NCBI GenBank assembly: GCA_035627275.1
Contig: DASPMC010000057.1
Coordinates: 128,472 to 152,471, forward strand
DNA length: 24,000 bases
Source of the DNA: Noviherbaspirillum sp.
GTDB taxonomy: Bacteria; Pseudomonadota; Gammaproteobacteria; Burkholderiales; Burkholderiaceae_D
Reading direction: 5' to 3'
Below are positions 1 through 24,000 of this stretch, piece by piece (position 1 is the first letter of the stretch; each line of letters starts with the position of its first letter). The notes under the pieces are model-generated. The model had not been told where the DNA came from. It saw only the letters and a list, made by a program, of their open reading frames with translations, and did not search any database. The translations under genes were made by a program, and so were the position numbers.

Positions 1-623
1 TCCGGGCCTGTTTGCAGTTTCTTGCGCAGCTTGTAGACATGCTGCTCGATCGTGCGGCCGACGATATCTCCCTGCACGCCCCAGATCGCGTTACCGATCG
101 TCTGTCGTGACACGTACACACCGGGGGCGGAAAAGAACAGCCAGGCAATCGTGAACTCGCGTGCGGTCACGATGATCGGTTCGCCGCGATAGGTAATGCT
201 GCTTGCCTCCCTGTCGAGTACGTAGCCGCCGAGCTCGATCACCCGCTGCACGTTGCGGCGGTTGCAGCGGCGCATCAACGCATTGATGCGCGCGATCAGT
301 TCGGTGGGGTCGATGGATTTCGTGACGAATTCGTCTGCACCTGCTCCAAGCGTCATCGCCAGCAGGTCTGCGCTATAGACCGGAGAAAGGACGACTACCG
401 GGGTGCTGTCATCGGAACGGCAGTTCAGCCAGGTGAAGATGCTTTCCTGGTCTTGCAGGCCGGTGGCGATGTCGACGAGGATGGCGCCAAAACTGCGTTG
501 CTTGAGCGCGCGGAGCAATGCGGTATCCGAAGCAAAGCGATCACACTTCAGCCCGGTGCGCGCAAGGGTGCCCTGAACCTGCTCGTAAAGGCCATCATTG
601 CGGATGTGGCATGCGATATTCAT
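1..623 (-). CDS. OmpR/PhoB-family response regulator (receiver + winged helix); C-terminus cut by the window edge
   Basis: Absent from the ORF track because it runs off the window. My minus-strand translation from the ATG at 623-621 gives MNIACHIRNDGLYEQ..AILVDIATG..VVVLSP..DEFVTKS, a receiver domain with the phospho-acceptor Asp, S/T and Lys present. It continues REFTIAWLFFSAPGVYVSRQTIGNAIWG..GRTIEQHVYKLRKKLQTGP, an OmpR-type wHTH. Confidence 0.85.
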   Translation of the reverse strand, partial: MNIACHIRNDGLYEQVQGTLARTGLKCDRFASDTALLRALKQRSFGAILVDIATGLQDQESIFTWLNCRSDDSTPVVVLSPVYSADLLAMTLGAGADEFVTKSIDPTELIARINALMRRCNRRNVQRVIELGGYVLDREASSITYRGEPIIVTAREFTIAWLFFSAPGVYVSRQTIGNAIWGVQGDIVGRTIEQHVYKLRKKLQTGP

Positions 624-768
624 GTGTAGCTCGGTATAAACCGCCGGGTTCAACAGCTTGCACGGCAGTTTGTTCGTTCCTTGTCATCCGGTCGTTTGAC
701 GGCCGGATGACTGAAGCGTGCAGCAGGATCACTGCCACATGCTCCCCCCAGTGGTACTTTGTTGTTAT

Positions 769-8244: not shown

Positions 8245-8420
8245 ACGAGCTCCGAAAAACAAGCGACAAACACGATGTCGCGGATAGCGGGCCGGTCACC
8301 GGCGTCGCAGGTCGATAGCCGAACATGTTCTTCAAGTTAGCCGTCGACGCGGCGTGCGACTACGGGGATGCTTCGTAGTGTCGGCAAGCAGGCGCACGAC
8401 ACCACTACGGAAAACAAATC

Positions 8421-8486
8421 GAGTGCGGTATTGCCCGCACTCGCATTTCAAAAAAAAGACGCCTTCCCGCGGATGCGGAAAGGCGT
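8421..8486 (-). terminator. Tandem rho-independent terminator-like hairpins downstream of the LuxR-solo gene
   Basis: Hairpin 8459-8486 (ACGCCTTCC...GGAAAGGCGT, one bulge) is followed on the minus strand by a T8 run (A8 on plus at 8450-8457). A second perfect hairpin, GAGTGCGG-tattgc-CCGCACTC (8421-8442), is followed on the minus strand by GATTTGTTTT. Confidence 0.55.
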
Positions 8487-8516
8487 TCAAGCCCAACTGA
8501 GGGGGAGGGCAGGAGA

Positions 8517-9332
8517 CTATACGATGGCCAGCCGGCCGGCGACGTAGGCCAGCTGGGCGCGATTCATGGCCTGGTACTTTCGGCGCAGCGCGCGAAGGTG
8601 ATAATCGATGTTGTGCACAGTCGTACGCAGACCTCGGGCAATTTCCTTGTCGCTCAACCCCTTCGATACACCTGCGAGCACATGCTTCTGCATATCGGAT
8701 AAATCATCGATTTCGGATCGCCGCATCAGGCCGGCCGTGCAGCCCTTGATGAACTCGTGTACGGAGAGTCCGAGGATGAGTGCCTGGCCCGCGATACTGG
8801 GAGCGATCCAATCCTTTGTCGTATTGGCCGAGTTGATGCAGATCGCGACCTGCATGGACGACAACGGAACCGTCAGGCTGAACGCGACTCCGCTATTCAT
8901 CCCGTGTTTCGCCAGGTCGTCGAGAAAGCTGCGCATGTGTGGACTAAGCATGTTTCCGGGTTGTGTACGAGCGAGGTAGCGCAGGTCCCAGATTAGTGGA
9001 ACCGGGCACGTCCGAATCGCTTCAAGGCGCGGATCCAGCGCATGGAAGCCTTGGCGGAAGTAGTCGGCGGTCCATTGTGCCGGCAAGTAGCTCTTGAGGA
9101 ACAAGGTCTTTTCTGTGCGCTCACCAGAAAGCTGCCGTACCTCATAGTGCAGGGAGTTGAAGCCCATGATCGACAGCATGCTGCGAATGTTCGTCATGCG
9201 CGCAGCGGGCGTCGACGCGGCTACGAGTTCGTTGGTGACGCGGAGGCGATTGTCGTAGGAGGCAGTGCCCTGGTCGAATGCGAGATCGTGCTCTTCAATG
9301 AACGTGACATCCTGGTCGTTGAAGTTCTGCAT
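8517..9332 (-). CDS. LuxR-family quorum-sensing-type regulator (autoinducer-binding domain + LuxR HTH), no cognate luxI in the window (solo)
   Basis: The autoinducer-binding signature W-x3-Y-x8-DP-x13-W (AQWTADYFRQGFHALDPRLEAIRTCPVPLIWD) has the same spacing as TraR W57/Y61/D70/P71/W85. The C-terminal HTH is LSDKEIARGLRTTVHNIDYHLRALRRKY. ATG at 9332. The ORF-track start at 9353 is TTG. Confidence 0.85.
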   Translation of the reverse strand: MQNFNDQDVTFIEEHDLAFDQGTASYDNRLRVTNELVAASTPAARMTNIRSMLSIMGFNSLHYEVRQLSGERTEKTLFLKSYLPAQWTADYFRQGFHALDPRLEAIRTCPVPLIWDLRYLARTQPGNMLSPHMRSFLDDLAKHGMNSGVAFSLTVPLSSMQVAICINSANTTKDWIAPSIAGQALILGLSVHEFIKGCTAGLMRRSEIDDLSDMQKHVLAGVSKGLSDKEIARGLRTTVHNIDYHLRALRRKYQAMNRAQLAYVAGRLAIV

Positions 9333-9550
9333 GGTCGTGGTCACTTTGCACAAGGGCGCATGGTCGGCGCCGGTTAGTCAAACAGGAAACAGGTTACTGC
9401 CGGCTTCGTACATCCGGTTGGATGCCTAAGGATGTGCGTGTCTTGGTAAAAAAGATAGCATCGGTAACGGGGCGGGAAATCGTCCCCGGTGACAATTCGT
9501 GAGACATTCACAGATATTGAGAATCCTCGGCAAGGCACGGAGAAGATAAT

Positions 9551-9605: not shown

Positions 9606-10697
9606 TTACCGCTTGTTGAGCATTTCGTGCAGCTCGAGCCGGTTGTATGTGGCGCGCATGGCGTCCTTGGCAGTGATCGATTTCTTCGTTACCAGCTGCG
9701 CTAGTACCTCGTTAAGGCTTCTGGACATGTTGTCTTCCTTGCGGCGCATGAAATCGGCAAGCATATGCATCTTGGCCGGATCGGCGATGTAAGCCCCGAC
9801 CTGCTGGTTATGGTTGAAGACCATTTCACTGGCCAGCACGAACTCTTCCTCGTTTTCCGCCGGGAGCAGGCTCTGGAAAATGACGCCGATCAGCGAGTTG
9901 GCGAGCGTGATCGCGCGCTGGCTGCGCTGCTCTGCCGGAAAGAATCCGAGAAGCTTCGTGATCGCACTTGCTGCACTGTTGGTGTGCATCGTCGCCAGGA
10001 CAAGGTGCCCCGATTCGCCGGCATGCAGCACCGTGTCCGCGGTGTCGAAGTCGCGTATCTCTCCCACCATGAGCACATCCGGTTTCTGACGCATCGCCTC
10101 GCGCAAGCCGGAGGAAAAGCTCGCGGTGTCGGTCGGCACTTCCTTCTGGGAGATGATCGATTCCTTGCGTTCCAGCTCGTACTCGATCGGCTCTTCGATG
10201 GTGATGATATGGCTGGCGCGCGCAGCGTTGATGCTGTCGAGCATCGATGCAATGGTAGTGGTCTTCCCCGATCCGGTCGGCCCCGTGACAAGGATGATGC
10301 CCTTCGTGGCTTCAAGCATCGTCTTTACGTAATGCGGAAGTCCCGTTCTTTCGAGGGGGATTGGACGCAGGGGCAGACGCCTGATCGAAATCGTCACCTT
10401 GGAACCGCAAGACATGCGGTAGACATTGCAACGGAGGCGGCATGCAGTCAGGACGAACGGACGGTCGATGGCGCGGTCGACGATCTTGTCTTCCCAGTCT
10501 TCATCGATGGCCTTGAGCACCGGCACCATCTCCTCGAGCACCACCGGATCGTGGCCGGACTGGCGCCATCCGCGCGGAGTCTTGAGCATGAGCGGCGCAT
10601 CCTGTTCGATGTGGATGTCGGAGAAGGTTTGACCGGAATTGACCAGGGCGATGATTTCGCCGAGAAGGTCGCGCGATAGTGAGGAGTAGTCGCTCAT
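9606..10697 (-). CDS. PilT/PilU-like secretion-superfamily hexameric ATPase (T2SS-E/PilT family), orphan
   Basis: Walker A GPTGSGKTTT, Asp box IITIEEPIEY, Walker B DVLMVGEIRD, His box GHLVLATMHTNSA. The SD AAGGTGA sits 4 nt before the ATG. I did not find the PilT-specific AIRNLIRE motif in the C-terminal region. Confidence 0.85.
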   Translation of the reverse strand: MSDYSSLSRDLLGEIIALVNSGQTFSDIHIEQDAPLMLKTPRGWRQSGHDPVVLEEMVPVLKAIDEDWEDKIVDRAIDRPFVLTACRLRCNVYRMSCGSKVTISIRRLPLRPIPLERTGLPHYVKTMLEATKGIILVTGPTGSGKTTTIASMLDSINAARASHIITIEEPIEYELERKESIISQKEVPTDTASFSSGLREAMRQKPDVLMVGEIRDFDTADTVLHAGESGHLVLATMHTNSAASAITKLLGFFPAEQRSQRAITLANSLIGVIFQSLLPAENEEEFVLASEMVFNHNQQVGAYIADPAKMHMLADFMRRKEDNMSRSLNEVLAQLVTKKSITAKDAMRATYNRLELHEMLNKR

Positions 10698-13851: not shown

Positions 13852-14373
13852 TTAGCGGCGACCATATTGCTCCAGGCATTTCGATAGCACTTCACGCTCA
13901 TCGGAGAGGAACAGCTTTCCTTCGAGCCGGGCGACTTCAGCGCACTTTTCCGCAAGTGCGGGATTGACGCAGCTCATGGAGCCGGCCTGCCTGTCTCCAT
14001 CGAACAGGAAAGCATGGCAGGCCGCTGCTGCCACGACCACCGTGACGGTGCCCGCACCGACGCATAGTATGCGGACAGGGTCCTGTTTGATGCTTTGCGA
14101 GAATCGCTGCCACCGCCCTTGAGTGGCGTCGTCCGGATTTTTCGCAAACAGGGATCCGGTCACCCAGGTAAACAGTAGGGCGAATACAGTGCCGGACGCG
14201 AGAACGAGAAGCGCGGCCATCATCAGCAGACGATGGCCGGTGTCGTCATATGTTATTCGCCACGCAAACATTGCAGCGATGGTGTCGATGCCTATCCAGA
14301 ACGACACCAGGATGGTTTTCAGCAGGAAGGCCGTCGTTTCATGTGGTGCGTACAGTCCGAATCCCTTGCGCAT
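13852..14373 (-). CDS. Uncharacterised 3-TM membrane protein, predicted HrpL-regulon member
   Basis: Three hydrophobic segments (FLLKTILVSFWIGIDTIAAMFAW, LLMMAALLVLASGTVFALLFTWV, ILCVGAGTVTVVVAAAACHAFLF) and a Cys-containing soluble tail of about 45 aa. I recognise no family. I chose the start at 14373 (MRKGFG) because the ORF-track start at 14454 lies inside or upstream of the hrp-box promoter at 14441-14469. Confidence 0.6.
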   Translation of the reverse strand: MRKGFGLYAPHETTAFLLKTILVSFWIGIDTIAAMFAWRITYDDTGHRLLMMAALLVLASGTVFALLFTWVTGSLFAKNPDDATQGRWQRFSQSIKQDPVRILCVGAGTVTVVVAAAACHAFLFDGDRQAGSMSCVNPALAEKCAEVARLEGKLFLSDEREVLSKCLEQYGRR

Positions 14374-14440: not shown

Positions 14441-14469
14441 TGAGTGGCATGCAATGCCGCGGCGGTTCC
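14441..14469 (-). promoter_or_regulatory. hrp box (HrpL-type ECF sigma promoter), perfect consensus
   Basis: The minus strand reads GGAACC-GCCGCGGCATTGCATG-CCACTCA. That is GGAACC-N16-CCACNNA with 11 of 11 specified positions matching, about 70 nt upstream of the ATG at 14373. Confidence 0.6.
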
Positions 14470-14504
14470 ATTGCGCCCGTTGCTTCTCTATCAACCCCGT
14501 CCGT

Positions 14505-14532
14505 GGAACTGACCGGACCCTGCCGCCACTTA
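14505..14532 (+). promoter_or_regulatory. hrp box (HrpL-type promoter) for the sctI-sctL operon
   Basis: The plus strand reads GGAACT-GACCGGACCCTGCCG-CCACTTA (N15, 10 of 11 specified positions). It is divergent from, and 36 bp away from, the minus-strand box. It lies 50 nt upstream of the ATG at 14583. Confidence 0.6.
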
Positions 14533-14582
14533 TCGACAACATCTCACGCCGCGACAACCTTGCCGGCAGATAGGAGGAAACC

Positions 14583-14795
14583 ATGCAGTCCAGGACAACA
14601 TCGACAGATAAACCGCGCATCGCTCCACGCGACCGCTATCTCTTGAGCGGAGGAGCGTTCCAGCAGGCGGTCCCCCAGGAGGGGCAGGACGTCGTTCGTG
14701 CAGCTTGTCTGCAGGCGATGGCGACCGATAGGGGCACAGGCATCGATGAATTCAATCCTTGCCTGTCTCGCCGGCGGCTACCGAGGAAGGGGTAA
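14583..14795 (+). CDS. Hypothetical 70-aa protein, first ORF after the hrp box (positional equivalent of hrpA)
   Basis: A consensus SD AGGAGG (14572-14577) sits 5 nt before the ATG. It lies directly downstream of the hrp box and upstream of sctI. The sequence MQSRTTSTDKPRIAPRD... resembles no family I recognise, and it is basic and contains 2 Cys. Confidence 0.4.
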   Translation: MQSRTTSTDKPRIAPRDRYLLSGGAFQQAVPQEGQDVVRAACLQAMATDRGTGIDEFNPCLSRRRLPRKG

Positions 14796-14867
14796 GGCGG
14801 GTCGGATTTCCTGAAAGCCCGATCCTGTATCTACCGCAGTGCAAGCAAAAACCTGAAGGGGGCCAAC

Positions 14868-15284
14868 GTGAACGAAATCACCTCAGTACCTGACCTAGCA
14901 ACAGCGTCCGCAAGCGGCATGGGCCGCACCGGCCAGCTCAGGCTGGAAATCGTGGGGGCGGAGCCGGGTGACGGCGCACAGTTCCGCGGCGCGCTCGAGC
15001 GTCACATGCAGTCCGTCCAGGGCGCGGGCGCGGTGCCCGGCGGCGGCAACAATGCTTCGCTCGGAGAGAAGATCATGGCCCGCGCCACCAACCTGGCGAG
15101 CGAAATGAAAAGTGGTGAGCAGCATGTCTCGAAGATGCTCGAGCAAGCGACCCGAAGTGCAGACCCGATGCACATGATGAAAGCGATGCTCGCGCTGAAT
15201 GATTACCAGATGCGTGTTCAGTTCGTTTCCAAAACGGCGTCGAAAGCCGCATCCTCCATCGACCAGTTGACGAAGCTGCAATAA
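14868..15284 (+). CDS. sctI: T3SS inner-rod protein SctI (HrpB/YscI/PrgJ family)
   Basis: 138 aa, GTG start with GAAGGGGG upstream. The C-terminus ALNDYQMRVQFVSKTASKAASSIDQLTKLQ aligns by eye with the PrgJ/YscI C-terminal helix (..SDYNLYVSMVSTLTRKGVGAVETLL..). It lies immediately upstream of sctJ, as hrpB does. Confidence 0.7.
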   Translation: MNEITSVPDLATASASGMGRTGQLRLEIVGAEPGDGAQFRGALERHMQSVQGAGAVPGGGNNASLGEKIMARATNLASEMKSGEQHVSKMLEQATRSADPMHMMKAMLALNDYQMRVQFVSKTASKAASSIDQLTKLQ

Positions 15285-15288
15285 GCTT

Positions 15289-16164
15289 ATGAGCGCGAAC
15301 CTTCTCGACTATCAGCATTCGCATGCCGCCTCGCTTACCGCGTCGCAGTGGCAGCGCGTGCAGACGATGCTGCTGCGGCTGTGTGTGTTCTGTCTGTTCC
15401 TCTTCCTGTGTGGTTGTTCCGAAACGACCAACCTGCAGGCAGGACTTAACGACGCCGACGCCAACGAAATCGTGTCGGTGCTGAACCGTCATGGCATCAC
15501 GGCGCAGAAGCGCACTACCAAGGAGGGCGTGACGCTCACCGTCAAGATGTCGGATATCTCACGCGCCACCGAAGTGATGCACGCTGCCGGCCTGCCAAGG
15601 CGAACCCGCACCAATCTTGGGCAGGTATTCAAGAAGGAAGGGATGATCTCCACTCCGCTCGAGGAGCGAGTGCGCTACATCCACGGGCTGTCGGAGGAGC
15701 TGGAATTCACGCTCCAACAGTTTGACAACGTGGTATCGGCGCGTGTGCACGTGGTCCTGCCGGAGCGAATTGCGCCGGGCGAACCGATCCAGCCTTCATC
15801 CGCTGCGGTATTCGTCAAGTATCGTCCGCCTTTCGACGAAGACACGGCCATTCCGCGCATCCGCAACCTGGTTGCGTCGAGCATCCCCGGGCTGTCGGGC
15901 GAAAGCGGGCATGACAAGGTATCGGTTGTGCTGGCGCCAAGCGAAGCTACCGCACCCAGGGTCGAGTGGACCCAGGTGGGGCCATTCATCGTACAGGCCG
16001 AATCGGCGGGTGGCTTGATCGCTACCCTGTTGCTGATGGCGGGCGTGGTTGCCGCGAGCCTGTTCTATGCCTTTATAGCGGGCGGCCGCCGGCAAGTGCT
16101 GGGCAACTGGGCCAGGAAACACTTCGGCAAGTCGCCCGCATTCAATGCGGGCGACGAGGGATAG
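15289..16164 (+). CDS. sctJ: T3SS inner-membrane ring lipoprotein SctJ (HrcJ/YscJ family)
   Basis: The lipobox LFLCGC is followed by LQAGLNDADANEIVSVLNRHGITAQK..GVTLTV...ATEVMHAAGLPR, then ARVHVVLPE and a C-terminal TM helix LIATLLLMAGVVAASLFYAFIAG. This is the classic YscJ/HrcJ/FliF-like architecture. Confidence 0.92.
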   Translation: MSANLLDYQHSHAASLTASQWQRVQTMLLRLCVFCLFLFLCGCSETTNLQAGLNDADANEIVSVLNRHGITAQKRTTKEGVTLTVKMSDISRATEVMHAAGLPRRTRTNLGQVFKKEGMISTPLEERVRYIHGLSEELEFTLQQFDNVVSARVHVVLPERIAPGEPIQPSSAAVFVKYRPPFDEDTAIPRIRNLVASSIPGLSGESGHDKVSVVLAPSEATAPRVEWTQVGPFIVQAESAGGLIATLLLMAGVVAASLFYAFIAGGRRQVLGNWARKHFGKSPAFNAGDEG

Positions 16165-16178
16165 CGGGGCAGTTTGCC

Positions 16179-16790
16179 ATGCTGACAGACGCATTCCTCG
16201 ATTGGTGGTTCGCGCCATGGGCATATGCGGCGCGTCCTTCAGCCTCCCTGTCCGCGCCGGATTGCCTGGGGCAGAGGGACGCCTATCGCTTGTGGTGCGA
16301 AGAAGCTCGGCTTAGACCCGACCTGCCGGAACGCTGCGATCCCGCATGGAGCTTCGCCGCCCTTTATGACGGCAGAGTACTGCTTTCCACGGCAAGGCTG
16401 TTTGCCGGACTGATGGCTGCACGTCGGCACGACCGCACGGGACTCGATGCACTTACGATCGACGATAGGAAATGGTGCGCCAGCATCTCCGCCACCCAGC
16501 CGCTGCAAAGTTTCCACACGATGCGCGTCGCATCGCCCCAGCAGGTCGAGATATGGGGACTGGTCGAGCTCGCCGTACGGCTGGAGCACGGATTTCCCGG
16601 CATGTGGTCGCGCTTGCGTTTGCTGCTTCCATCAGACATGTCGCGGGACGTGGACGGATTGTTGCGATCCGGAACCGGTGCGGGCGCCCACGTGAGCACG
16701 CCGGACCGCCGCGCGCAACGCTGCTGGCGCTTGTGCCTTGAACGTGTCGCGGATGCGGCACGGATCACGAAGGAAGGAGTGCTTCAATGA
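16179..16790 (+). CDS. HrpD-position protein, putative sorting-platform component (SctK-like)
   Basis: 203 aa starting MLTDAFLDWWFAPW. It sits between sctJ and sctL, exactly where hrpD/sctK lies in Hrp1 clusters. Its stop overlaps the sctL start (ATGA at 16787-16790). The assignment is positional. I see no diagnostic motif. Confidence 0.5.
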   Translation: MLTDAFLDWWFAPWAYAARPSASLSAPDCLGQRDAYRLWCEEARLRPDLPERCDPAWSFAALYDGRVLLSTARLFAGLMAARRHDRTGLDALTIDDRKWCASISATQPLQSFHTMRVASPQQVEIWGLVELAVRLEHGFPGMWSRLRLLLPSDMSRDVDGLLRSGTGAGAHVSTPDRRAQRCWRLCLERVADAARITKEGVLQ

Positions 16791-17425
16791 CAGGATTCTG
16801 TGTCGAGAAAATCCAGTGCGATCCGCAACTGCGCGGAGAGCATGGCGTATTGCGGGTTGCGGCGATCGCGGTGACGGCCGACGCACGCCAGGCAGCAGCC
16901 AGGATTATGCGACAGGCGCAAGATGAAGCCGATGCGCTGCTGCGGCGCGCGCATGAAGAAGCAAGCGAAGTCGTGCGGGAGGCAGAGCAGCAGACACTGG
17001 CGCGTGCGAGCGCACTATTGCAATCCCTGGAGGAAGCCAACACCAGCCTGGTGAAGCGTTCTCAAGACATCGTCATTTCGCTGGCGCAGGGCGTATTCGA
17101 TCGGCTCGTGAGTGACACCACACCGAGGGAACGTGTGGAGGCAGTCCTCAAGCGGGTGCTGCAGGAAGCGCAGCCGGGCCTGTCGCATCCCTTGCTGCGT
17201 CTGCATCCGGAGGATGTCGAACTGGCGCCGGCGGTGGAATGGGAGATCAAGCCGGACGCTTCCCTGCCGCGCGGCACATGCCGCCTCGAAGCGTCTACCG
17301 GCGAATGGGGCGCGGATTTTTGCGCAGCGGTGACCTCCCTGAAGACTGCCTTGATGCGCACGACGTCGAATACCGGCATGGACGATGGCGAATCCGACGC
17401 CTCGATTGTTCAACACAAAAACTGA
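16787..17425 (+). CDS. sctL: T3SS stator protein SctL (HrpE/YscL/FliH family)
   Basis: An N-terminal charged coiled-coil ARQAAARIMRQAQDEADALLRRAHEEASEVVREAEQQTLARA is followed by LLRLHPEDVELA and GTCRLEASTGEWGADFCAAVTSL, which is typical of the FliH/YscL C-terminal domain. Confidence 0.8.
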   Translation: MTGFCVEKIQCDPQLRGEHGVLRVAAIAVTADARQAAARIMRQAQDEADALLRRAHEEASEVVREAEQQTLARASALLQSLEEANTSLVKRSQDIVISLAQGVFDRLVSDTTPRERVEAVLKRVLQEAQPGLSHPLLRLHPEDVELAPAVEWEIKPDASLPRGTCRLEASTGEWGADFCAAVTSLKTALMRTTSNTGMDDGESDASIVQHKN

Positions 17426-17440
17426 CAAAACGGATGTCAC

Positions 17441-18268
17441 ATGAACGTTCTTTCTCATACCCCACGATTAGCCCTGCCGCCGGGCGACTCCGATTCCGTG
17501 GTAAGCATTACAGCGGTTCCTCCGCGCCCAGGACAAGGTACGGCATCCACTTCCACTCCCGCATCATCGGGACATGGCGGAGGACGCATTGGTGCGTCGG
17601 GAGATGCCCGGACGCGCGCGCGGCTGCAGGGAACGATGCGACGTCCTGCAGCGGCAGGATCGACCGGCCCGGACGCCGGAAACGTAAGGAATCTTGACGA
17701 GGGCGTTGCCCACGCCGCGAATGCCGCCCGCAAGGAAGGCTTGCTGGACGAGGAAGACGAGCGGCAAATGGCCTCACAGACGCCCTCGGAGCAGTTGCAT
17801 ACCCTCGTGGAGGCGCTCCGGCGGGCGATCAAACATCTGGCCGACGATCTGAAGGAGCAGCCTGAGGCATCGAGGGACTCGGCGGACGAAGCGCGCTTGT
17901 ATACACAGCAGGAAACGCTTGAAGCACTGTTGAAAGTCATGCAAGGGCTTGAAAGCGGGACAGCGGCATCGCCGAGGCCGGCCACCGGCAGCGGCGGCAC
18001 TGGCGATCCCGGCGGCCCTGGGGGCACCGGTGGGCCAGCAGGCGCTGCGGACGCCGAGGGCGACCACAAGGCGCACGCATCGAAGGAAGAAAAGCCACGT
18101 GCAGAGCGTGATCCCGGCAATCTTCAGGACATGATGTCGGAGTTCATGAAGATGCAGGAAATGCTCAGTACCGTCCAGGGAATGATCATCGACACCTTCC
18201 TTTCCCAGCTCAAGATGCTGACGGAAATGATCAAGAAAATCAATGAGATAGCTACCAGCGCGATCTGA
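17441..18268 (+). CDS. Novel 275-aa cysteine-free, Gly/Pro/Ser-rich acidic protein; harpin-like / T3SS-substrate candidate
   Basis: It starts 15 nt after the sctL stop. The N-terminal part (about 100 aa) is Pro/Gly/Ser/Thr/Arg-rich. A helical acidic core (LHTLVEALRRAIKHLADDLKE) follows, then the Gly-X-Y-like run GGTGDPGGPGGTGGP, then a Met-rich amphipathic C-terminus DMMSEFMKMQEMLSTVQGMIIDTFLSQLKMLTEMIKKINEIATSAI. It contains no Cys. The opposite-strand ORFs (17455..18120, 17774..18421) have R/C/H-rich shadow composition. Confidence 0.6.
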   Translation: MNVLSHTPRLALPPGDSDSVVSITAVPPRPGQGTASTSTPASSGHGGGRIGASGDARTRARLQGTMRRPAAAGSTGPDAGNVRNLDEGVAHAANAARKEGLLDEEDERQMASQTPSEQLHTLVEALRRAIKHLADDLKEQPEASRDSADEARLYTQQETLEALLKVMQGLESGTAASPRPATGSGGTGDPGGPGGTGGPAGAADAEGDHKAHASKEEKPRAERDPGNLQDMMSEFMKMQEMLSTVQGMIIDTFLSQLKMLTEMIKKINEIATSAI

Positions 18269-18293
18269 GCGATTCACAGCCGGGGACGGGAAT

Positions 18294-18323
18294 GCATGCA
18301 TGGGGCATATGCCCCATGCATGC
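18294..18323. repeat. Perfect 30-bp palindrome GCATGCATGGGGCAT|ATGCCCCATGCATGC
   Basis: Read directly: 15+15 nt with no mismatch. It lies 26 nt after the stop at 18268 and 42 nt upstream of the -35 element of the hrp box at 18365. No U-tract follows. Confidence 0.9.
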
Positions 18324-18364
18324 CGTGCTGTACGCACCCGGTAATGAAACTTGAGTAATTCAAG

Positions 18365-18392
18365 CGAACCGTCCACCCACTCCTGCCACTTA
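18365..18392 (+). promoter_or_regulatory. hrp box (HrpL-type promoter) for the sctF-like/chaperone/sctC operon
   Basis: CGAACC-GTCCACCCACTCCTG-CCACTTA (N15, 10 of 11 specified positions). It shares the -10 context TGCCACTTAT with the box at 14505. It lies 50 nt upstream of the ATG at 18443. Confidence 0.5.
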
Positions 18393-18442
18393 TACTGGGA
18401 TGCCGACACTTTCGACATCACCTCAACAGGGAAGGAGCCATC

Positions 18443-18682
18443 ATGTCAAACAGTCTCAGCACGGCCCACACCATGTCCGCTTTGCGTCGTCTGACTAACA
18501 GGTTCGATGCCGCCGGCGATCAGATCAATGACTTCGCCCACCGCCAAGCGCAAGGGGAAAACCCCGATCCCGCCGAATTCATGAAATTGCTTGAACAGCG
18601 TTCAGTAACCGGGCAGGCCATGCAAGCCCAGTTCAAGCTTCGCGAAAAACCACTGAAGACCGTCCTCAACGAAACGCGATAA
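18443..18682 (+). CDS. sctF: T3SS needle-filament-type protein (SctF/PrgI/MxiH/YscF-like), in the hrpF position
   Basis: 79 aa, no Cys, SD AAGGAG 5 nt before the ATG. By eye, RFDAAGDQI matches PrgI KFDTGVDNL. The central loop NPDPAEF matches the needle P-(S/D)-(D/N)-P turn (PrgI KPSDPALL). The C-terminus ..VLNETR compares with PrgI ..IIQNFR. Confidence 0.65.
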   Translation: MSNSLSTAHTMSALRRLTNRFDAAGDQINDFAHRQAQGENPDPAEFMKLLEQRSVTGQAMQAQFKLREKPLKTVLNETR

Positions 18683-18687
18683 GCAGC

Positions 18688-19104
18688 ATGGATGTTTACG
18701 GCGATCTGGAACGGTGGCTCGACAGCCTGCCGCTGGACGAGGCCGTGGAGATTGACGGCGAAACAGTCTTCCTGAAGATCCATGCAGCCGGCGCGGAACT
18801 CGGTGTTTGCCTGCTCCGCACCTGCACACAGACCCAGATTCAGGATGCCTTGCGAATGGGCTTTGCAAGTGCCATCACCCATGACGCCGGGTTGGGGTTG
18901 TCTGCCGACGGCAAGGACCTGCTGCTTACCCAGTGGTTGCCACAGGCAAAACGATGGACACAGGCGGCGAAGGCACTGGAAAACCTGTTGAACCAGACCG
19001 CCACCTGGCGCGCTGCGCTCGCGCCACGGGCCGCCGAATCTGTGGGCGTCGCCGACCGACACGAGCGGCGTCTGCGCACATTGCTGGCAGGGGGGAAACG
19101 ATGA
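18688..19104 (+). CDS. Putative T3SS chaperone-like protein (hrpG position)
   Basis: 138 aa and acidic, MDVYGDLERWLDSLPLDEAVEIDGETVFLKIH... has the size and N-terminal pattern of CesT/SycE-type class I chaperones. It lies between the needle-like gene and sctC, and its stop overlaps the sctC start (ATGA at 19101-19104). The call is mostly positional. Confidence 0.45.
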   Translation: MDVYGDLERWLDSLPLDEAVEIDGETVFLKIHAAGAELGVCLLRTCTQTQIQDALRMGFASAITHDAGLGLSADGKDLLLTQWLPQAKRWTQAAKALENLLNQTATWRAALAPRAAESVGVADRHERRLRTLLAGGKR

Positions 19105-20915
19105 AATTCTTGAACATCAAGCGTTGTCTGGCCGTGATGATGATTGGCGCAGGCCTGCTCTGGTCGTCGTCCGCGCAAGCCGCCACGCCGGACAGCTGGA
19201 AGGACAGCGGGTTTTCCATCAATGCCTCGGGCATGCCTTTGCGCGATGTCATGCAAGAGTTCGGTAATGCCTTCGGCGTGCGCGTGTCCTACAGCCTTAA
19301 AGAGAGCCACGTGCTGAAAAGCCGACTGAAAGCCGATAGCGGCATCGAGTTCCTGGACAGGCTGACGCATTCGTACAAGTTCCGCTGGTTCGTTTACAAC
19401 GGCACTTTGTATATCGTACCCAGCAACGACAATGTCTCGGTGCGTCTTGAAGTCGGCGAGGATGCGGTACAGGACGCCAAGTCCGCTCTCGTTGGCCTGG
19501 GCCTGTTCGACAACCGCTTTGGCTGGGGCGAGCTGCCCGACGAAGGTGTGGTGATGGTCAGCGGCCCGCGTGAATACATCAACCTTGCGCGCGAAATCCT
19601 GCTTCCCGAAAACCGGGCGTCCGCACCCAAGGGCAAGCAACTCATGGTCTTCCGGCTCAAGTACGCCAGCGCGACCGACCGTGTGATAAACACGCGTGGC
19701 CAGAAGGAAACCATCCCCGGCATCAAGACCATCCTTGCAGGCCTGCTCAACCCTGACCGGCCTGCCGCCGGGCATGGCGGGCGCGACGATGTCGATGTAT
19801 CGAGCAGTAAGCGTTCGCTCAAGGGAAAGTACGGACGAGGAGACGCCTCAGAATCGGGCGCGCGCACGGCTGGCGGGCGGTTGCAGCAAGAGATCGAGGA
19901 CGAGGACGATCAGGACGCGAGGCGGTCGCGCCGGGCGAAGGAAACGCAGCGCTCCACGGGACCGCGGATCGACGCGGACGCCTCGCTGAACGCCATCATC
20001 ATCTACGACCATGCCAGCAAGCGCCAGATGTACCAGTCGCTGATTGCCGAGCTGGATGTCGAGCCGCAGCAGATCGAGATCGAGGCGCTCATCGTCGATA
20101 TCGATCGCAGCAGGCTGGCAGAATTGGGCGTTGAATGGGGCGCGCGTAACGGCAATACCAACCTGCGCGTCAATGCCACCTCCCGGGATTCGCAAGGCGA
20201 CGACCTGCCGATTCCAGGTGCGACGCTCCTGATCAGCAATGCGGCCCGCTTCTACGCGCGGCTCAAGGCGCTCGAAGGAACGGGCGAGGCCAATGTGCTG
20301 GCCAAGCCGACGGTCCTGACACTGGACAACGTCGCTGCCGTGCTCGACCTGAGCCAGACGTCCTACCTGCCGCTCGTCGGCGAGCGTGTTGCCGATCTTG
20401 CCAATGTCACCGCCGGTACCATGTTGCGGGTCGTGCCGCGCATCGTGAAAGAGAATACCGGCACCCGGGTACGGCTTGAAGTCGACATCGAAGACGGTTC
20501 CCTGGGCGATCCCAACCAGAAGAACACGGTAGCGACGCGTTCGACCATCAGCACCCAGGCAATCGTCGACTTGCAGCAAACCCTGATGATCGGCGGCTAC
20601 CACGCGGAGTCGAGGACGATCAACAAGCAGAAAGTGCCGGTGCTGGGCGATATGCCGCTGTTAGGCGGACTGTTCCGCAGCGAAAACGAGCAGCATAACA
20701 ATCGCGAGCGCTTGTTCCTTATCACGCCGCGTGTCCGGACAGCAGCGGGCATGCCCGCACCGGAGCGCTCGAAGCTTGGCGGCATTGCACAGGGGATCGC
20801 GGCGGCGGAGCAGGCCATGGCAGCGGCTGTGGACGGGACAGGTGCAGCACCCGCGCCGAAGCGGAAGCTGAAATGCGCCCGGCCGAAACCGGGGTTTCAG
20901 TCGGCGTTGCAGTAG
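19101..20915 (+). CDS. sctC: T3SS outer-membrane secretin SctC (HrcC/YscC/InvG family)
   Basis: Signal peptide MKFLNIKRCLAVMMIGAGLLWSSSAQA. The N-domain reads GMPLRDVMQEFGNAFGVRVSYS..FRWFVYNGTLYIVP. The secretin core reads NVLAKPTVLTLDNVAAVLDLSQTSYLPL.. and VPVLGDMPLLGGLFRSENEQHNNRERLFLITPRV. The ORF-track start at 18933 is an out-of-context extension that overlaps the upstream gene. Confidence 0.92.
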   Translation: MKFLNIKRCLAVMMIGAGLLWSSSAQAATPDSWKDSGFSINASGMPLRDVMQEFGNAFGVRVSYSLKESHVLKSRLKADSGIEFLDRLTHSYKFRWFVYNGTLYIVPSNDNVSVRLEVGEDAVQDAKSALVGLGLFDNRFGWGELPDEGVVMVSGPREYINLAREILLPENRASAPKGKQLMVFRLKYASATDRVINTRGQKETIPGIKTILAGLLNPDRPAAGHGGRDDVDVSSSKRSLKGKYGRGDASESGARTAGGRLQQEIEDEDDQDARRSRRAKETQRSTGPRIDADASLNAIIIYDHASKRQMYQSLIAELDVEPQQIEIEALIVDIDRSRLAELGVEWGARNGNTNLRVNATSRDSQGDDLPIPGATLLISNAARFYARLKALEGTGEANVLAKPTVLTLDNVAAVLDLSQTSYLPLVGERVADLANVTAGTMLRVVPRIVKENTGTRVRLEVDIEDGSLGDPNQKNTVATRSTISTQAIVDLQQTLMIGGYHAESRTINKQKVPVLGDMPLLGGLFRSENEQHNNRERLFLITPRVRTAAGMPAPERSKLGGIAQGIAAAEQAMAAAVDGTGAAPAPKRKLKCARPKPGFQSALQ

Positions 20916-20927
20916 CACGCGGCGGGT

Positions 20928-21500
20928 CTACTCTCGATCGAATTCCAGATCGCCTGAGGGCGGCGCGATCGAGGCGTGAGATGCCAGCTCCAGCAATTCA
21001 TCGACACTCCAGTGATCGTCGGCATGTCTGCCATAGTGGGCCGCAATGACAGTACCGTCCGGTCCGACAAGTACATCCGCGGGCAGGCCTGTTATGCCAT
21101 TTTCGGCTTTCTTGTAGAACTTCCCGGTGGCCAGGATGCCACGCAGTCCATTCCAGAAGACCGCAGGGTGAAGAATCGACAGCAATGAGGTCTCGACCCC
21201 GAATTGCCTGTAGATCTTCTTGCCGGGATCGGCAACGCAGTCGAAGGGCAGTTGGGCCTGGTACTTGAGCATTTCCTCTCGCGAGGAGTGAAAGAAGACG
21301 ATTTCGCGAATCCCTGCCGCTTCAATTTCCGACTGACGCTTGCGCATTATATGCAGATGAAAATTGCAGACCGGGCAACCGGCAAACCGGCGGAACTGCA
21401 GGTGAATGTAGCGGGCGCCTGGAGCGGGAATGCTGACGGCCTTTCCGTCAATGGTGGTCGTCGAAATTGTTGGAGCAGTCGAACCGGGTACGAGCCTCAT
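20928..21500 (-). CDS. AhpC/TSA (redoxin)-family thiol peroxidase-like protein
   Basis: FRRFAGCPVCNFHLHIMRKRQSEIEAAGIREIVFFHSS is a thioredoxin-fold CxxC (CPVC) redoxin pattern. The ATG at 21500 is preceded by AAGGAG. The longer ORF-track N-terminus (to 21776) would overlap the divergent TetR gene. Confidence 0.75.
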   Translation of the reverse strand: MRLVPGSTAPTISTTTIDGKAVSIPAPGARYIHLQFRRFAGCPVCNFHLHIMRKRQSEIEAAGIREIVFFHSSREEMLKYQAQLPFDCVADPGKKIYRQFGVETSLLSILHPAVFWNGLRGILATGKFYKKAENGITGLPADVLVGPDGTVIAAHYGRHADDHWSVDELLELASHASIAPPSGDLEFDRE

Positions 21501-21594
21501 CTGTTTCTTCTCCTTGCCTTCCTTGAATTGCGCGTTATCGCGACAGTCCGCATCGCATCCGATGAACCAGGCATCCGACATCGCTGATTGAAAT

Positions 21595-21609
21595 ACGTAC
21601 GATGTACGT
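21595..21609. promoter_or_regulatory. Inverted repeat ACGTAC-gat-GTACGT in the redoxin/TetR divergent intergenic region; candidate TetR operator
   Basis: Perfect 6-3-6 dyad read directly, 43 nt upstream of the TetR ATG at 21652. Confidence 0.35.
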
Positions 21610-21651
21610 TTACAATAAGCGTTCAGGCAAACATCGTCAAGGACATCATCA

Positions 21652-22293
21652 ATGGGACGCCCCGCAAAGTTTTCACGGGAGCAGCTGCAGGCTGCGGCCC
21701 TTGCCCTGGTGGATGAACACGGCCTCGCGGGTCTGTCGATGCGTGCACTCGCCAATGCGCTCGGCACGGGGGCCATGACGCTCTACAACTATGTTACGGA
21801 ACGCGAGGATCTCGACATCCTGGTTGTTGAAGCGGTGATCGCCGAGGCACGATGGTCGCCTGGCAGGAATAGAGATTGGCGCGAAGACGTGCGGCTCATT
21901 TCGACCGCGCTGTGGAAAGCAGTGCGTGCGCATCCCCACGCCATCCCCCTGATCCTCACTCGCCGCAGCCGGTCGCCGGCGGTGTTCGGCGTGTCCGAAG
22001 CCTTGCTCGATGCGCTGTCGCGCGGTGGAAAATCGGGACAGGAATTGCTGGTCGCTTTTCGTTCCGTATCGGCACTGGTGATGGGCTTTGCGCAAGCCGA
22101 GCTGGCCGGACCGCTGGCGGTGAAGGCAGGGGAGACGGCGAATGCCACGATTGCGCGCTTTCGCGCGCTTCCCGCCGAGCGCTATCGATGCCTGATCGAG
22201 ATCGCCACTGCTGCGGAATCCAGCGCGCCCGAGGCCGAGTTCCGGGCAGCGCTCGACTTGCTGCTGAAGGGGATGTCAGCGGGCGGGGATTGA
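21652..22293 (+). CDS. TetR-family transcriptional regulator
   Basis: The N-terminal HTH is REQLQAAALALVDEHGLAGLSMRALANALGTGAMTLYNYV. A helical ligand-binding domain follows. It is divergent from the redoxin gene. Confidence 0.9.
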   Translation: MGRPAKFSREQLQAAALALVDEHGLAGLSMRALANALGTGAMTLYNYVTEREDLDILVVEAVIAEARWSPGRNRDWREDVRLISTALWKAVRAHPHAIPLILTRRSRSPAVFGVSEALLDALSRGGKSGQELLVAFRSVSALVMGFAQAELAGPLAVKAGETANATIARFRALPAERYRCLIEIATAAESSAPEAEFRAALDLLLKGMSAGGD

Positions 22294-22784: not shown

Positions 22785-22988
22785 TTACTGTTGATCGTTG
22801 ACCTGCTTCGCCATCGCGTGAAAGATCTTCAGTTTCGACAGGGCGAGGGCTTGTGCGTTAGCCCACTGCGTGAGTTCGATCGTTTCCTGGCTCACTTGGC
22901 CGGAGTGTGCTTGACGTTTGTTGCCAGCGGCGGTGCGCGACGGGGTGGAATGCCAAAGTCCGTTGGACCAGTCGGATTGCGTATTCAT
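22785..22988 (-). CDS. Hypothetical 67-aa cysteine-free protein
   Basis: MNTQSDWSNGLWHSTPSRTAAGNKRQAHSGQVSQETIELTQWANAQALALSKLKIFHAMAKQVNDQQ. The ATG at 22988 has GAGAGG upstream. The N-terminal half is Ser/Thr/Gln-rich and the C-terminal part looks helical. The longer GTG start at 23063 would lie inside a hairpin. Confidence 0.45.
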   Translation of the reverse strand: MNTQSDWSNGLWHSTPSRTAAGNKRQAHSGQVSQETIELTQWANAQALALSKLKIFHAMAKQVNDQQ

Positions 22989-23044
22989 ACCATGCCTCTC
23001 GTGGTGATCGTGTCGATGGAAAGACGTGTGTACTTCTGAATAGT

Positions 23045-23075
23045 GCGCAGGGCCCTGATCCACCAGGCCCTGCGC
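23045..23075 (-). terminator. 10-bp perfect-stem hairpin GCGCAGGGCC-N11-GGCCCTGCGC between the 50-aa and 67-aa ORFs
   Basis: Read directly. It lies 40 nt downstream of the 50-aa ORF stop and upstream of the 67-aa ORF SD. The trailing sequence on the minus strand is ACTATTCAGAAG, a weak U-tract. It may be an attenuator or partial terminator. Confidence 0.4.
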
Positions 23076-23114
23076 GTACCGGAACGGGGGATGCTCCGGT
23101 CGAGCTGTGACGAC

Positions 23115-23267
23115 TTAGATCGCCGCTTCAGCGATCTGACGGCCTTTCTGTGCGGCTTGAGTTTTCAGCTTCAGCGCCGTGAGGCCTTCAGCGAGTGCGT
23201 TTCCGATTGCTGCATTACCAAGTGCGCTTGAAAAACCAGCGGCAGCACCAGCGGCAGGAATAAGCAT
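23115..23267 (-). CDS. Hypothetical 50-aa Ala/Gly-rich cysteine-free peptide
   Basis: MLIPAAGAAAGFSSALGNAAIGNALAEGLTALKLKTQAAQKGRQIAEAAI. A near-consensus SD AAGGAGG sits 5 nt before the ATG at 23267 (minus strand reads caAGGAGGttattATG). The ORF-track 123-aa version extends upstream without support. Confidence 0.55.
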   Translation of the reverse strand: MLIPAAGAAAGFSSALGNAAIGNALAEGLTALKLKTQAAQKGRQIAEAAI

Positions 23268-23329: not shown

Positions 23330-23358
23330 TGAGTTGCATGGCGGGGAGGGGGAGTTCC
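23330..23358 (-). promoter_or_regulatory. Degenerate hrp-box-like motif upstream of the 50-aa ORF
   Basis: The minus strand reads GGAACT-N16-CAACTCA (9 of 11 specified positions, with the -10 reading CAAC instead of CCAC). On the plus strand its -10 region TGAGTTGCATG differs at one base from TGAGTGGCATG in the perfect box at 14441. It ends about 60 nt upstream of the ATG at 23267. Confidence 0.3.
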
Positions 23359-23628: not shown

Positions 23629-24000
23629 ATGGGATTCGATCTAGGTACTGCTATCTTCAACCCCATCCAATCGTACAAGTACGGCACTGATACGGTGAAA
23701 AAAGCGGAGCAAGCCGGCATCAGTGACGATAAGCTCGACGAGCTCGAGGATGCAGGCGCAAGCGATGGCGAAATCAATAAAGCCGTCGGCAAAGCGCAAG
23801 AAAGGAATAAAAATGCGCTGCTTGCGGAAGTCAGCGGCGATGCTCCATCTGGACAAGGCTTCGACATCGGAGCGTCTTCAACGAGAGGCAGCGCTCAGTC
23901 AGGTCAAGATCTGAACGCATTACTGACAACGTTGACAACGCTTACCGCACTGAAGACGTTGACCGATATGGGCACCCAAAAGGACCACGAGCTCATCTGA
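23629..24000 (+). CDS. Hypothetical 123-aa acidic, cysteine-free Gly/Ser/Thr-rich protein
   Basis: SD AAGGAG 7 nt before the ATG. The stop TGA falls exactly at 23998-24000. There is an internal repeat GFDLGTA (residues 2-8) / GFDIGAS (near residue 87) and a C-terminal LLTTLTTLTALKTLTD. I see no signal peptide and recognise no family. Confidence 0.6.
   Translation: MGFDLGTAIFNPIQSYKYGTDTVKKAEQAGISDDKLDELEDAGASDGEINKAVGKAQERNKNALLAEVSGDAPSGQGFDIGASSTRGSAQSGQDLNALLTTLTTLTALKTLTDMGTQKDHELI

Follow-up and report, generated by a model that had tools for sequence, protein, structure and literature searches.

The window analysed here is a stretch of 24,000 nt of contig C57, and its right end lies 462 bp before the end of that contig. 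The source is an Oxalobacteraceae bin from a metagenome, which is 74% complete, consists of 122 contigs and has a contamination of 1.42%. The following features were assigned:

1-653, minus strand: 5' part of the gene for an OmpR-family response regulator (HrpG-like), full gene C57:128339-129124
9606-10697, minus strand: PilT-family ATPase (TIGR01420, E 3e-87, under the cut-off)
13852-14373, minus strand: 173-aa membrane protein with at least two hydrophobic stretches, behind a divergent hrp box
14441-14469, minus strand: perfect hrp box, GGAACC-N16-CCACTCA, divergent, 67 nt before the ATG of 13852-14373
14505-14532, plus strand: perfect hrp box, GGAACT-N15-CCACTTA, heading the sctI-J-K-L operon
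14583-14795, plus strand: 70-aa ORF with a strong ribosome site, between hrp box and sctI
14868-15284, plus strand: sctI (hrpB), inner rod (PF17001 over the cut-off, E 7e-18)
15289-16164, plus strand: sctJ (hrcJ), inner-membrane ring lipoprotein (TIGR02544, 208.8 bits, cut-off 162)
16179-16790, plus strand: sctK (hrpD-like), sorting-platform adaptor (profile match to Hrp1 HrpD)
16787-17425, plus strand: sctL (hrpE), stator (PF06188 over the cut-off, TIGR02499 under it)
17441-18268, plus strand: 275-aa low-complexity ORF, co-oriented with sctL
18365-18392, plus strand: variant hrp box with one mismatch, CGAACC-N15-CCACTTA, heading the hrpF-hrpG-hrcC operon
18443-18682, plus strand: HrpF-like or needle-like helical hairpin of 79 aa, on weaker evidence than the HrpD and HrpG calls
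18688-19104, plus strand: HrpG-type (CesT-like) chaperone of the gatekeeper complex (NF041550, E 1.5e-11, under the cut-off)
19101-20915, plus strand: sctC (hrcC), secretin (TIGR02516, 407.9 bits, cut-off 238)
20928-22293, divergent pair: redoxin and TetR genes (PF13911, PF02909)
22785-22988, minus strand: conserved tiny gene of 67 aa, behind the hrp-box-like site
23115-23267, minus strand: tiny gene of 50 aa, first behind the box, with a ribosome site
23330-23358, minus strand: hrp-box-like site with one mismatch, heading the tiny genes
23629-24000, plus strand: 123-aa ORF, 462 bp before the contig end

The SctI, SctJ, SctL and SctC calls of a preliminary description of this locus were all matched by profiles over the cut-off, and SctJ is 48-50% identical to two Hrp1 SctJ proteins. 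Its hrpD-like and hrpG-like calls are supported by profile-profile matches, with a probability of 87.5 (E 3.6e-6) for sctK against two Hrp1 HrpD proteins and of 91.8 (E 7.4e-7) for 18688-19104 against Hrp1 HrpG in hhalign. Homologues of SctK number 146, and none of the 120 listed has a Pfam domain; those of Collimonas are 47-48% identical. The ATGA overlaps of sctK and sctL at 16787 and of hrpG and sctC at 19101, as well as the 12 nt between the sctC stop and the redoxin stop, had been given exactly.

The sctF-like call at 18443-18682 has weaker support. The ORF scores 0.93 to needle_F and HrpF clusters in the ESM Atlas, has a Collimonas homologue of 74% identity and is modelled as a hairpin (pLDDT 80), a fold search with the model being uninformative. 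Its hhalign match to P. stewartii HrpF is collinear and weak (E 0.008-0.012, probability <5), and a second HrpF used alone gave nothing. Among the HrpF-like and tiny-ORF candidates no SctF (needle/pilus subunit) family match exceeded the cut-off.

Homologues of the window ORFs were sought in 96 loci. Neither the 275-aa ORF after sctL nor the 70-aa ORF before sctI has a family match or a homologue there. In relatives the slot after sctL holds other, unrelated ORFs; the 275-aa product is likely a secreted substrate, and the 70-aa ORF is perhaps a remnant.

Of the promoters that had been described as conserved hrp boxes, the two perfect ones hold up (0.05 expected in the window; two reached in none of 100 shuffles), and relatives likewise have a box before sctI. 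The one-mismatch boxes alone are not above chance, with 8 and 10 of 100 shuffles reaching two. A (C/T)GAAC(C/T) hexamer at N15-16 spacing is found 52-102 nt upstream of hrpF-hrpG-hrcC in 28 of 31 homologue rows, which include some genomes fetched twice, and tiny-gene arrays in three other loci (L029, L031, L061) are headed by perfect boxes. In the genome as a whole, spacing 15/16 gives 23 strict boxes and nine other spacing pairs give 4-10, an excess that points to a live regulon.

A pilL-N-O... type IV pilus cluster lies directly beyond the OmpR-family regulator, outside the window start, and the two together span C57:117.6-129.1 kb. Homologues of this regulator (49-56%) are found beside the same T3SS type in L030, L031, L042 and L061 and beside the T3SS in five of seven mapped relatives; it is 53% identical to a regulator 10 kb past sctC in the closed relative G078. 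Homologues of the PilT-family ATPase (68-82%) adjoin the T3SS in G005, G004, G001, G078, G220, G237, G213 and G321, and the ATPase travels with the island. The flanking membrane protein had been noted before, its place behind a divergent hrp box had been overlooked; it has no Pfam match and one homologue in the 96 loci (G005, 44%). The redoxin/TetR pair, with a homologue outside its own genome in 0 of 96 loci, is cargo inserted after sctC and outside the machine. The 123-aa ORF is without a family and without a homologue in the same loci.

Both tiny ORFs sit 1.9 kb past sctC. The 67-aa gene has homologues in six loci of other genomes, and in L031, L041 and L042 these lie just upstream of sctI, the hrpA position. 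The ESM Atlas gives a lead to HrpE-like (0.90) and HrpA_pilin (0.86) clusters, and hhalign against two HrpA proteins gave no match. This gene is a candidate for the Hrp pilin (SctF) or a pilin-like substrate. The 50-aa gene does not match HrpA; its ribosome site and position match the relatives' box-led arrays of 2-4 tiny genes, which makes it a pilin-like candidate. Two HrpA queries find nothing in the whole genome. The preliminary description mentioned neither these ORFs nor the regulator abutting the pil cluster.

The profile scan of 25 window proteins found no sctN, V, R, S, T, U, Q or D and no ECF sigma, as had been reported, and tblastn with the export genes of contig C100 gave no match inside the window. 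That contig of the same bin carries sctW-V-D-N-(O-P)-Q-R-S-T-U, preceded by a perfect hrp box. SctV, R, S, T, U, Q and D are each over the NCBIfam cut-off. SctN reaches 578 bits against an equivalog cut-off of 605, its NF-T3SS models outscore the FliI models, and its closest plasmid matches are Hrp1 (54-59%). SctW is a weak, HrpJ-like match, and SctO and SctP were called by position only. SctC and SctJ are absent from C100. The nine core genes of one lineage are divided, with C and J in the window and N, Q, R, S, T, U and V on C100, which by gene content is the exact complement of the window.

In trees of SctV and SctC, C100 and the window fall among the same relatives in mirrored subgroups, and in a small tree SctV is sister to two Hrp1 SctV (98/98). 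The second T3SS of the genome, on C120, lies on long separate branches in both trees. It includes C, J, L, N, Q, R, S, D and V itself; these are 31-49% identical, and no strict hrp box was found on C120.

Of hrpL, the bin itself contains no more than the first 17 codons, and the best other match in it is 33%. A separate locus, L096, encodes an ECF sigma of 187 aa, which shares 67.6% identity with the sigma linked to the T3SS in G017 and 38.6% with the one that P. stewartii has in the hrpL position. The last 141 nt of C100 and the first 141 nt of C18 are identical to L096, where they lie 830 nt apart. In run X1, which is possibly the source sample and therefore not independent, a 1,112-nt contig with a depth of 29.8 against 16.4 overlaps the left end of C18. 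These overlaps support the view that a repeat of 1,112 nt, at roughly twofold depth, contains HrpL and was lost from the bin between C100 and C18; the pairing of these contigs assumes that L096 took the other two flanks. The genome probably has two copies of hrpL. The right ends of C57 and C18 are two sides of one multi-copy repeat, C18 being one of seven contig ends on the matching side, and no contig or read covers the span from C57 to C18. C18 abuts hrpL, and one of its genes is the one that comes after sctC in G005 and G017.

A survey of 300 family genomes found the system in 34. Of these carriers of a window-type SctK, 30 have a C100-type SctV, 31 SctU, 32 SctC and 32 a HrpL-like sigma. 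In eight of the ten carriers assembled in at most eight contigs, the five markers all fall inside a span of 19-38 kb, and the order I-J-K-L, F-G-C and then W-V 2.6-10 kb further on occurs in G005, G220, G321, L031 and L042. The two exceptions to clustering are both of genus g51. In closed G075 the positions are 2.89-2.90 Mb for V/U/hrpL, 3.58 Mb for I-J-K-L and 3.89 Mb for F-G-C, and in G163 the system is on three contigs, two of them more than 550 kb from an end. Isolated F-G-C operons retain a variant box. Relatives of the same genus also differ in operon order, with the system spread over about 50 kb in G010 and about 58 kb in G308.

We consider it likely that the module is the ring, rod, stator and secretin half of a complete non-flagellar T3SS of the Herbaspirillum/Collimonas type (Hrp1-like hybrid), forming a single island that repeats interrupt. 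Its isolated look would then come from assembly breaks at two repeats, which are the most likely cause of the split. The claim that it stands alone does not survive, since the remaining parts of the system occur elsewhere in this genome (C100, C18 and the hrpL repeat) and the window stops just short of the contig end. The proposal of one half of a split T3SS under HrpL was essentially right, and the outcome that the preliminary description had named as reducing the case to an ordinary split cluster was obtained, with the remaining core genes at a second locus, C100, and hrpL in L096 and the C100-C18 gap. A complete but dispersed system, with the window operons far from the export and ATPase operons and HrpL coordinating them in trans via the box that each carries, is rather unlikely. 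Such a layout is real in G075 and G163, the isolated operons keep their box, operon order varies within a genus, and six other contig ends could come after C57. Against this, most near-closed carriers are clustered, both exceptions belong to another genus, and C18, with its sctC-following gene and its place next to hrpL, ends in the terminal repeat of C57.

The lack of export genes in the window and the presence of a second T3SS would also suit a reduced secretin/ring/needle module with another role, as had been considered, or one borrowing the C120 export apparatus. We regard this as very improbable, because all the missing core genes are on C100, which itself lacks rings, while C120 has its own set of diverged components without strict boxes and the trees pair the window with C100. 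Slightly less credible still is that the halves come from different organisms or that the system is decaying. The genome is a metagenome bin, and repeats and cargo break up the island; four of the 34 carriers lack a C100-type SctV match and two have a split sctC match, so decay does occur in the lineage. Contamination is low, however, C100 ranks 43 of 115 by tetranucleotide profile, which is typical for this bin, the core T3SS ORFs are all open and full length on both contigs, and the excess of strict boxes at 15/16 spacing speaks against decay.

For the single broken island, the order would be pil cluster, HrpG-like regulator, cargo, box, sctI-J-K-L-orf, box and hrpF-hrpG-sctC, followed by redoxin/TetR, the tiny genes with their box, an IS-like repeat and C18, and then by a conserved 170-aa gene, hrpL, a box and the sctW-..-V-D-N-O-P-Q-R-S-T-U genes of C100. 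Established knowledge of T3SS parts, laid on the profile-supported calls, predicts a basal body of SctC, J, D, I and the HrpF-like protein, a sorting platform of K-Q-L-N-O, an export gate of R-S-T-U-V and a substrate switch of W with the HrpG chaperone. The tiny genes would probably supply the pilus, which is a lead only, and box-led orphan ORFs on other contigs are likely substrates, perhaps delivered into plant or fungal cells. The HrpL sigma would turn on each operon via its own hrp box; boxes and sigma gene are present, and the reading of these boxes by this sigma is presumed. The OmpR-type regulator probably acts upstream, by analogy with PMC3093359.

The preliminary description took the Hrp1 group of P. 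syringae and Erwinia as its model. Operon contents and order do agree with canonical Hrp1 (P. syringae, Erwinia, Pantoea), as do the HrpD, HrpG, HrpF and HrpL counterparts, but the Herbaspirillum/Collimonas variant is the right comparison. Unlike canonical Hrp1, the present locus lacks hrpT-hrpV after hrcC, with the redoxin stop in their place, has no recognisable HrpA or HrpZ, carries extra genes between sctW and sctV and has an OmpR-type regulator with pil genes. Within the window, no hrpA/hrpZ or sigma-54 activator HrpS/HrpRS was found before sctI. In five genomes of the variant the HrpT model was never over the cut-off; the HrpV model matched in none of the five either and gave no signal in any positive control, and the 112-aa gene after sctW gives no more than a faint HrpV lead.

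PMC3093359 and PMC3487950 describe for the hybrid T3SS of H. seropedicae SmR1 and H. rubrisubalbicans M1 the same hrpB-hrcJ-hrpD-hrpE operon and separate operon ending at hrcC, a hrp box on each operon, and HrpL with an OmpR-type HrpG; hrpG and pil genes adjoin the cluster of H. seropedicae (PMC3093359), and mutants of H. rubrisubalbicans showed effector secretion into plant cells (PMC3487950). This layout recurs in G078, whose proteins share 39-79% identity with the present ones. We infer the Herbaspirillum-type kinship from that layout and from the names among the homologues (Collimonas, Herbaspirillum sp., Noviherbaspirillum, Rugamonas). In contrast to the Herbaspirillum hybrid, the I-J-K-L/F-G-C block here would precede W-V instead of following sctU; it is broken up by cargo and repeats, some 14 kb separate it from the regulator and the pil genes, and hrpL is apparently duplicated. 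As in the three Collimonas strains with a hrp-hrc1 cluster and a second T3SS (PMC4690342), the present genome has a second system.

With the present T3SS, a known lineage of such systems gains a member from a soil Oxalobacteraceae bin. The case illustrates how collapse of a two-copy hrpL, together with an IS-like repeat, can leave a complete system looking like an orphan. A wider reading is that in this lineage a duplicated HrpL governs a T3SS made up of portable operons with one box each, a regulated injectisome that can be scattered over a megabase in a free-living betaproteobacterium, as observed in G075, with the present genome as such a case and an unnamed family of box-driven pilins of 50-70 aa as its pilus; as a whole we hold this to be rather unlikely. 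The box-led tiny-gene arrays are concrete candidates for a pilin that standard profiles do not recognise in this lineage. Core genes spread over several loci, as in G075, G163 and possibly here, are known from the scattered NF-T3SSs of Chlamydiales, Hamiltonella defensa and pYPTS01, where scattering has been linked to a lack of specific regulation (PMC3459982). The scattered operons of the present lineage differ in keeping HrpL-type boxes and the sigma, and the g51 relatives, with three distant loci and HrpL and hrp boxes retained, do not fit that link.

The eight module ORFs listed in the preliminary description were found in the sequence where it had placed them, and every one is open. The main features of the window are as follows (window positions).

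Features of the window
6976-9353, CBM2-GH6 cellulase, adjoining a LuxR-family regulator with an autoinducer-binding domain
9606-10697, PilT-like gene
13852-14373, membrane-protein gene behind a divergent hrp box
14441-14532, two perfect hrp boxes, divergent
14583-14795, 70-aa ORF lying between hrp box and sctI; strong ribosome site, no homologue found
14868-17425, sctI-J-K-L operon
18443-20915, F-G-C operon (HrpF-like, HrpG-type, sctC)
22785-23267, two tiny genes after a one-mismatch hrp box (site to 23358)

The SctI, SctJ, SctL and SctC calls stand, with family matches for all four and with SctJ and SctC above the NCBIfam cut-offs. The three module calls lacking an above-cut-off family were examined by profile comparison. 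The 203-aa ORF matched HrpD of Pantoea stewartii and Pseudomonas antarctica (probability 87.5, with 36 of 146 homologues aligned), and the 138-aa ORF matched the HrpG chaperones of the same two species (probability 91.8, profile of 9 sequences). For the 79-aa ORF, the alignment with P. stewartii HrpF was end-to-end but weak (E 0.008, probability 4.8, 15 of 16 homologues aligned), and profile comparison with a second HrpF on its own gave no alignment. Its nearest ESM Atlas clusters are needle_F and HrpF (0.93); it is modelled as a plain hairpin, for which fold and PDB sequence searches returned generic hairpins only. Since SctF of Hrp1 is HrpA in the Sct table contained in the available part of PMC3574062, 'HrpF-like' is the safer name. 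A sctD-like fragment occupies in the relative G017 a slot similar to that of the 70-aa ORF.

The preliminary description called this module stand-alone and took it for either one half of a split T3SS or a reduced module; the stand-alone or reduced reading is rejected, as the missing genes are carried by another contig, C100. The bin consists of 122 contigs at 73.7% completeness; the window corresponds to C57:128472-152471, and C57 stops 462 bp beyond it. C100 (20.9 kb) is a second locus with all the remaining core genes; a pair of small genes separates sctW from sctV, after which come D, N, O, P, Q, R, S, T and U. On the terms of the preliminary description itself, such a locus makes the module part of an ordinary split cluster. 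Seven of the C100 proteins (V, D, Q, R, S, T, U) score above cut-offs, SctN scores 578 against a cut-off of 605 bits, SctW has a weak HrpJ-like match only, and sctO and sctP are positional calls. Both sctC and sctJ were sought on C100 and are absent. A perfect hrp box precedes sctW, and C100 has a composition typical for its bin, ranking 43 of 115.

There are four SctV/FlhA genes in the bin: two flagellar, one in a T3SS on contig C120 and the one on C100. Trees of 14 SctV and 15 SctC sequences mirror each other in the groups (G005, G017), (G004, G010, G001) and (L031, L041, L042), made up of family genomes and fetched loci; C100 SctV and the window SctC fall among these mirrored groups, while C120 lies far off. 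The root of the SctC tree is unreliable because the outgroup branch is very long, and the groupings alone were used. Pairing of the module with the C120 T3SS, or with the flagellar systems, is rejected on identity and trees. The C120 system (7.1-38.2 kb; L013, L014) is a second, unrelated T3SS comprising C, I, J, L, N, O, P, Q, R, S, D and V. It has a pil cluster and an OmpR regulator of its own, and an RpoS-like sigma precedes sctV; strict hrp boxes are absent from C120. The one genome also holds two flagellar export systems, on C57 (59-78 kb) and C42; C72 additionally encodes R-S-T-U, and C6 has a U-like gene.

The preliminary description also had no hrpL within reach. In relatives an ECF sigma, with 38% identity to the sigma at the P. 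stewartii hrpL position, lies beside sctW, and the bin's best match to it, at just 33%, spoke for absence. This claim was later overturned by evidence from contig ends and metagenomes. C100 terminates in a ribosome site and 17 codons oriented away from sctW, and the small contig C18 starts within a gene whose counterpart in relatives converges with hrpL. When metagenomes were scanned with the C100 end, two loci were returned: L095, identical to C100, and L096, on a 5.75-kb contig, with flanks that are absent from the bin. L096 encodes a 187-aa sigma which starts with the 17 codons of C100 and has 67.6% identity to the G017 sigma. Two 141-nt stretches of L096, separated by 830 nt, are identical to the end of C100 and the start of C18 (141 + 830 + 141 = 1,112 nt). 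Sequencing run X1, possibly the source sample, contains a 1,112-nt contig at depth 29.8, whose overlap with C18 (depth 16.4) takes in the initial 141 nt of the latter. A second run, X2, gives no evidence: its shared word fraction is only 0.13, and it covers just 5 of the 30 bins. From the X1 depth, the L096 identity and the 1,112-nt arithmetic we infer that hrpL probably lies in a two-copy repeat that is below the length of the shortest contig of the bin (2,165 nt), with one copy bridging C100 and C18 and the other in L096. Two hrpL-like genes are present in 12 of 34 relatives.

At its right end C57 has 139 nt in common with five other contig ends, and the right end of C18 has 140 nt in common with six others. 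The two classes have a 28-nt terminus in common, as expected for the two sides of an IS-like repeat; no transposase was identified. Because the repeat ends are common to several contigs, C57-C18 is one of seven possible joins. Scanning metagenomes for a pattern taken from the right end of the window found nothing, and contigs placed on C18 yielded neither a joint nor a piece that crosses the right-hand repeat. Synteny favours the C57-C18 join: in G005, G220, G321, L031 and L042, I-J-K-L and F-G-C are followed by W-V within 2.6-10 kb. Tiny genes, a conserved 170-aa gene and hrpL lie in the interval or immediately upstream. We consider it most likely that the system is one island cut by assembly repeats.

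A SctK profile was searched against 300 family genomes that are at least 90% complete and matched 34, which are kin and not independent. These carriers have C100-type SctV in 30 of 34, SctC in 32, the sigma in 32 and SctU in 31. Ten are assembled in at most eight contigs, and in eight of the ten all markers lie within 19-38 kb. The layout of G078 is the one described for H. rubrisubalbicans, with hrpL at one end, U then I-J-K-L, an operon behind its own box that ends with sctC, pil genes, and the regulator 10 kb beyond sctC (PMC3487950, PMC3093359). The other two of the ten, G163 and the closed genome G075, both of genus g51, have three loci hundreds of kilobases apart.

Scattered T3SS loci
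G075, C1, 2.89-2.90 Mb, 3.58 Mb and 3.887 Mb (L065-L068)
G163 (L079-L082)

The scattered system comes with two hrpL-like genes, and each locus has a box or variant box; its F-G-C operon is flanked by a transposase fragment, rRNA-like sequence and a housekeeping gene. In L033, L034 and L039, too, the retrieved flanks of F-G-C contain no further core gene. That the system of the bin is dispersed is possible but improbable, and one island remains the preferred reading. Scattered NF-T3SSs are known (21 of 216) from Chlamydiales, Hamiltonella and one plasmid, according to the accessible part of PMC3459982; titles and abstract starts, most subscription papers being uncovered, gave no dispersed T3SS in Noviherbaspirillum, Oxalobacteraceae or Actimicrobium. 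The HrpL-boxed yet scattered G075 system is the more interesting object and lies outside the window.

The HrpT model had no above-cut-off match in any of five genomes searched, and HrpT and HrpV queries had no match in seven relatives mapped, so that having no HrpT/HrpV after sctC appears to be a lineage trait. The gene after sctC in G005 and G017 is not HrpV-like. A 112-aa gene after sctW (L012:17576-17914) is conserved across the lineage and bears only a faint resemblance to HrpV (E 0.07; one of seven members reaching E 0.027); if it were HrpV, the HrpV partner would stand beside the gatekeeper and not behind hrcC. In two relatives, L029 (1905-3458) and L042 (12280-13890), the gene after sctC encodes a related protein of some 520-540 aa, and a similar ORF occupies this place in G005 and G017.

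The hrp boxes of the preliminary description were confirmed: the two perfect boxes compare with 0.05 expected. One-mismatch boxes lie upstream of the 79-aa ORF and of the tiny-ORF pair near the window's right end, and in the form of a variant box the F-G-C promoter persists throughout (28 of 31 rows of homologues, duplicates among them). Across the genome, strict boxes at spacing 15/16 number 23, compared with 4-10 for nine other spacing pairs. Many precede family-less ORFs, which are likely T3SS substrates; 7 of 11 box-led ORFs scanned had no Pfam match.

Box-led ORFs behind strict hrp boxes
C18, C22, C36, C41, C51, C86, C109, C111 and C119 (L085-L094)

These likely T3SS substrates include a J-domain protein, an alpha-amylase-domain protein, a 1,447-aa HAD and NUDIX protein and a number of long orphans. 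On C100, a GGDEF gene likewise lies behind an hrp box.

Our observations comprise gene content, boxes, the sigma gene and co-occurrence. HrpL would turn on each operon, perhaps itself under an OmpR-type regulator as proposed for H. seropedicae (available text of PMC3093359); the operon products would assemble a standard injectisome, and effectors would be delivered into plant or fungal cells. In H. rubrisubalbicans, mutants of the same T3SS kind were affected in disease and endophytic growth (part of PMC3487950), and a role on fungi has been suggested for the Collimonas T3SS (part of PMC4690342).

The window starts inside an OmpR-family regulator adjoining a pil cluster, and homologues of the regulator and of the PilT-like gene lie beside the same T3SS in most relatives mapped. 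The GH6-CBM2 cellulase and the LuxR-family regulator could form a plant-signal-responsive pair; no autoinducer synthase was seen adjacent to the regulator. The X1 record is soil, and with the cellulase it is compatible with plant contact but proves nothing.

Box-led arrays of two to four tiny genes (47-77 aa, helical C-termini) are also present in relatives.

Box-led tiny-gene arrays of relatives
L031:4670-5487
L042:4506-5222
L061:5900-7028
L029:4114-4778

In L031, L041 and L042 the arrays directly precede sctI, the hrpA position of Hrp1 islands. No tiny gene aligned with two HrpA proteins. The 67-aa tiny protein has a conserved C-terminal helix, and its ESM Atlas leads point to HrpE-like proteins (0.90, making up 55% of their cluster) and to HrpA pilins (0.86). 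The tiny genes are no more than candidate pilins, in a lineage without a recognised HrpA. Elsewhere on C57, at 80742-99122, a 6,126-aa ORF lies upstream of a sox-like gene set.
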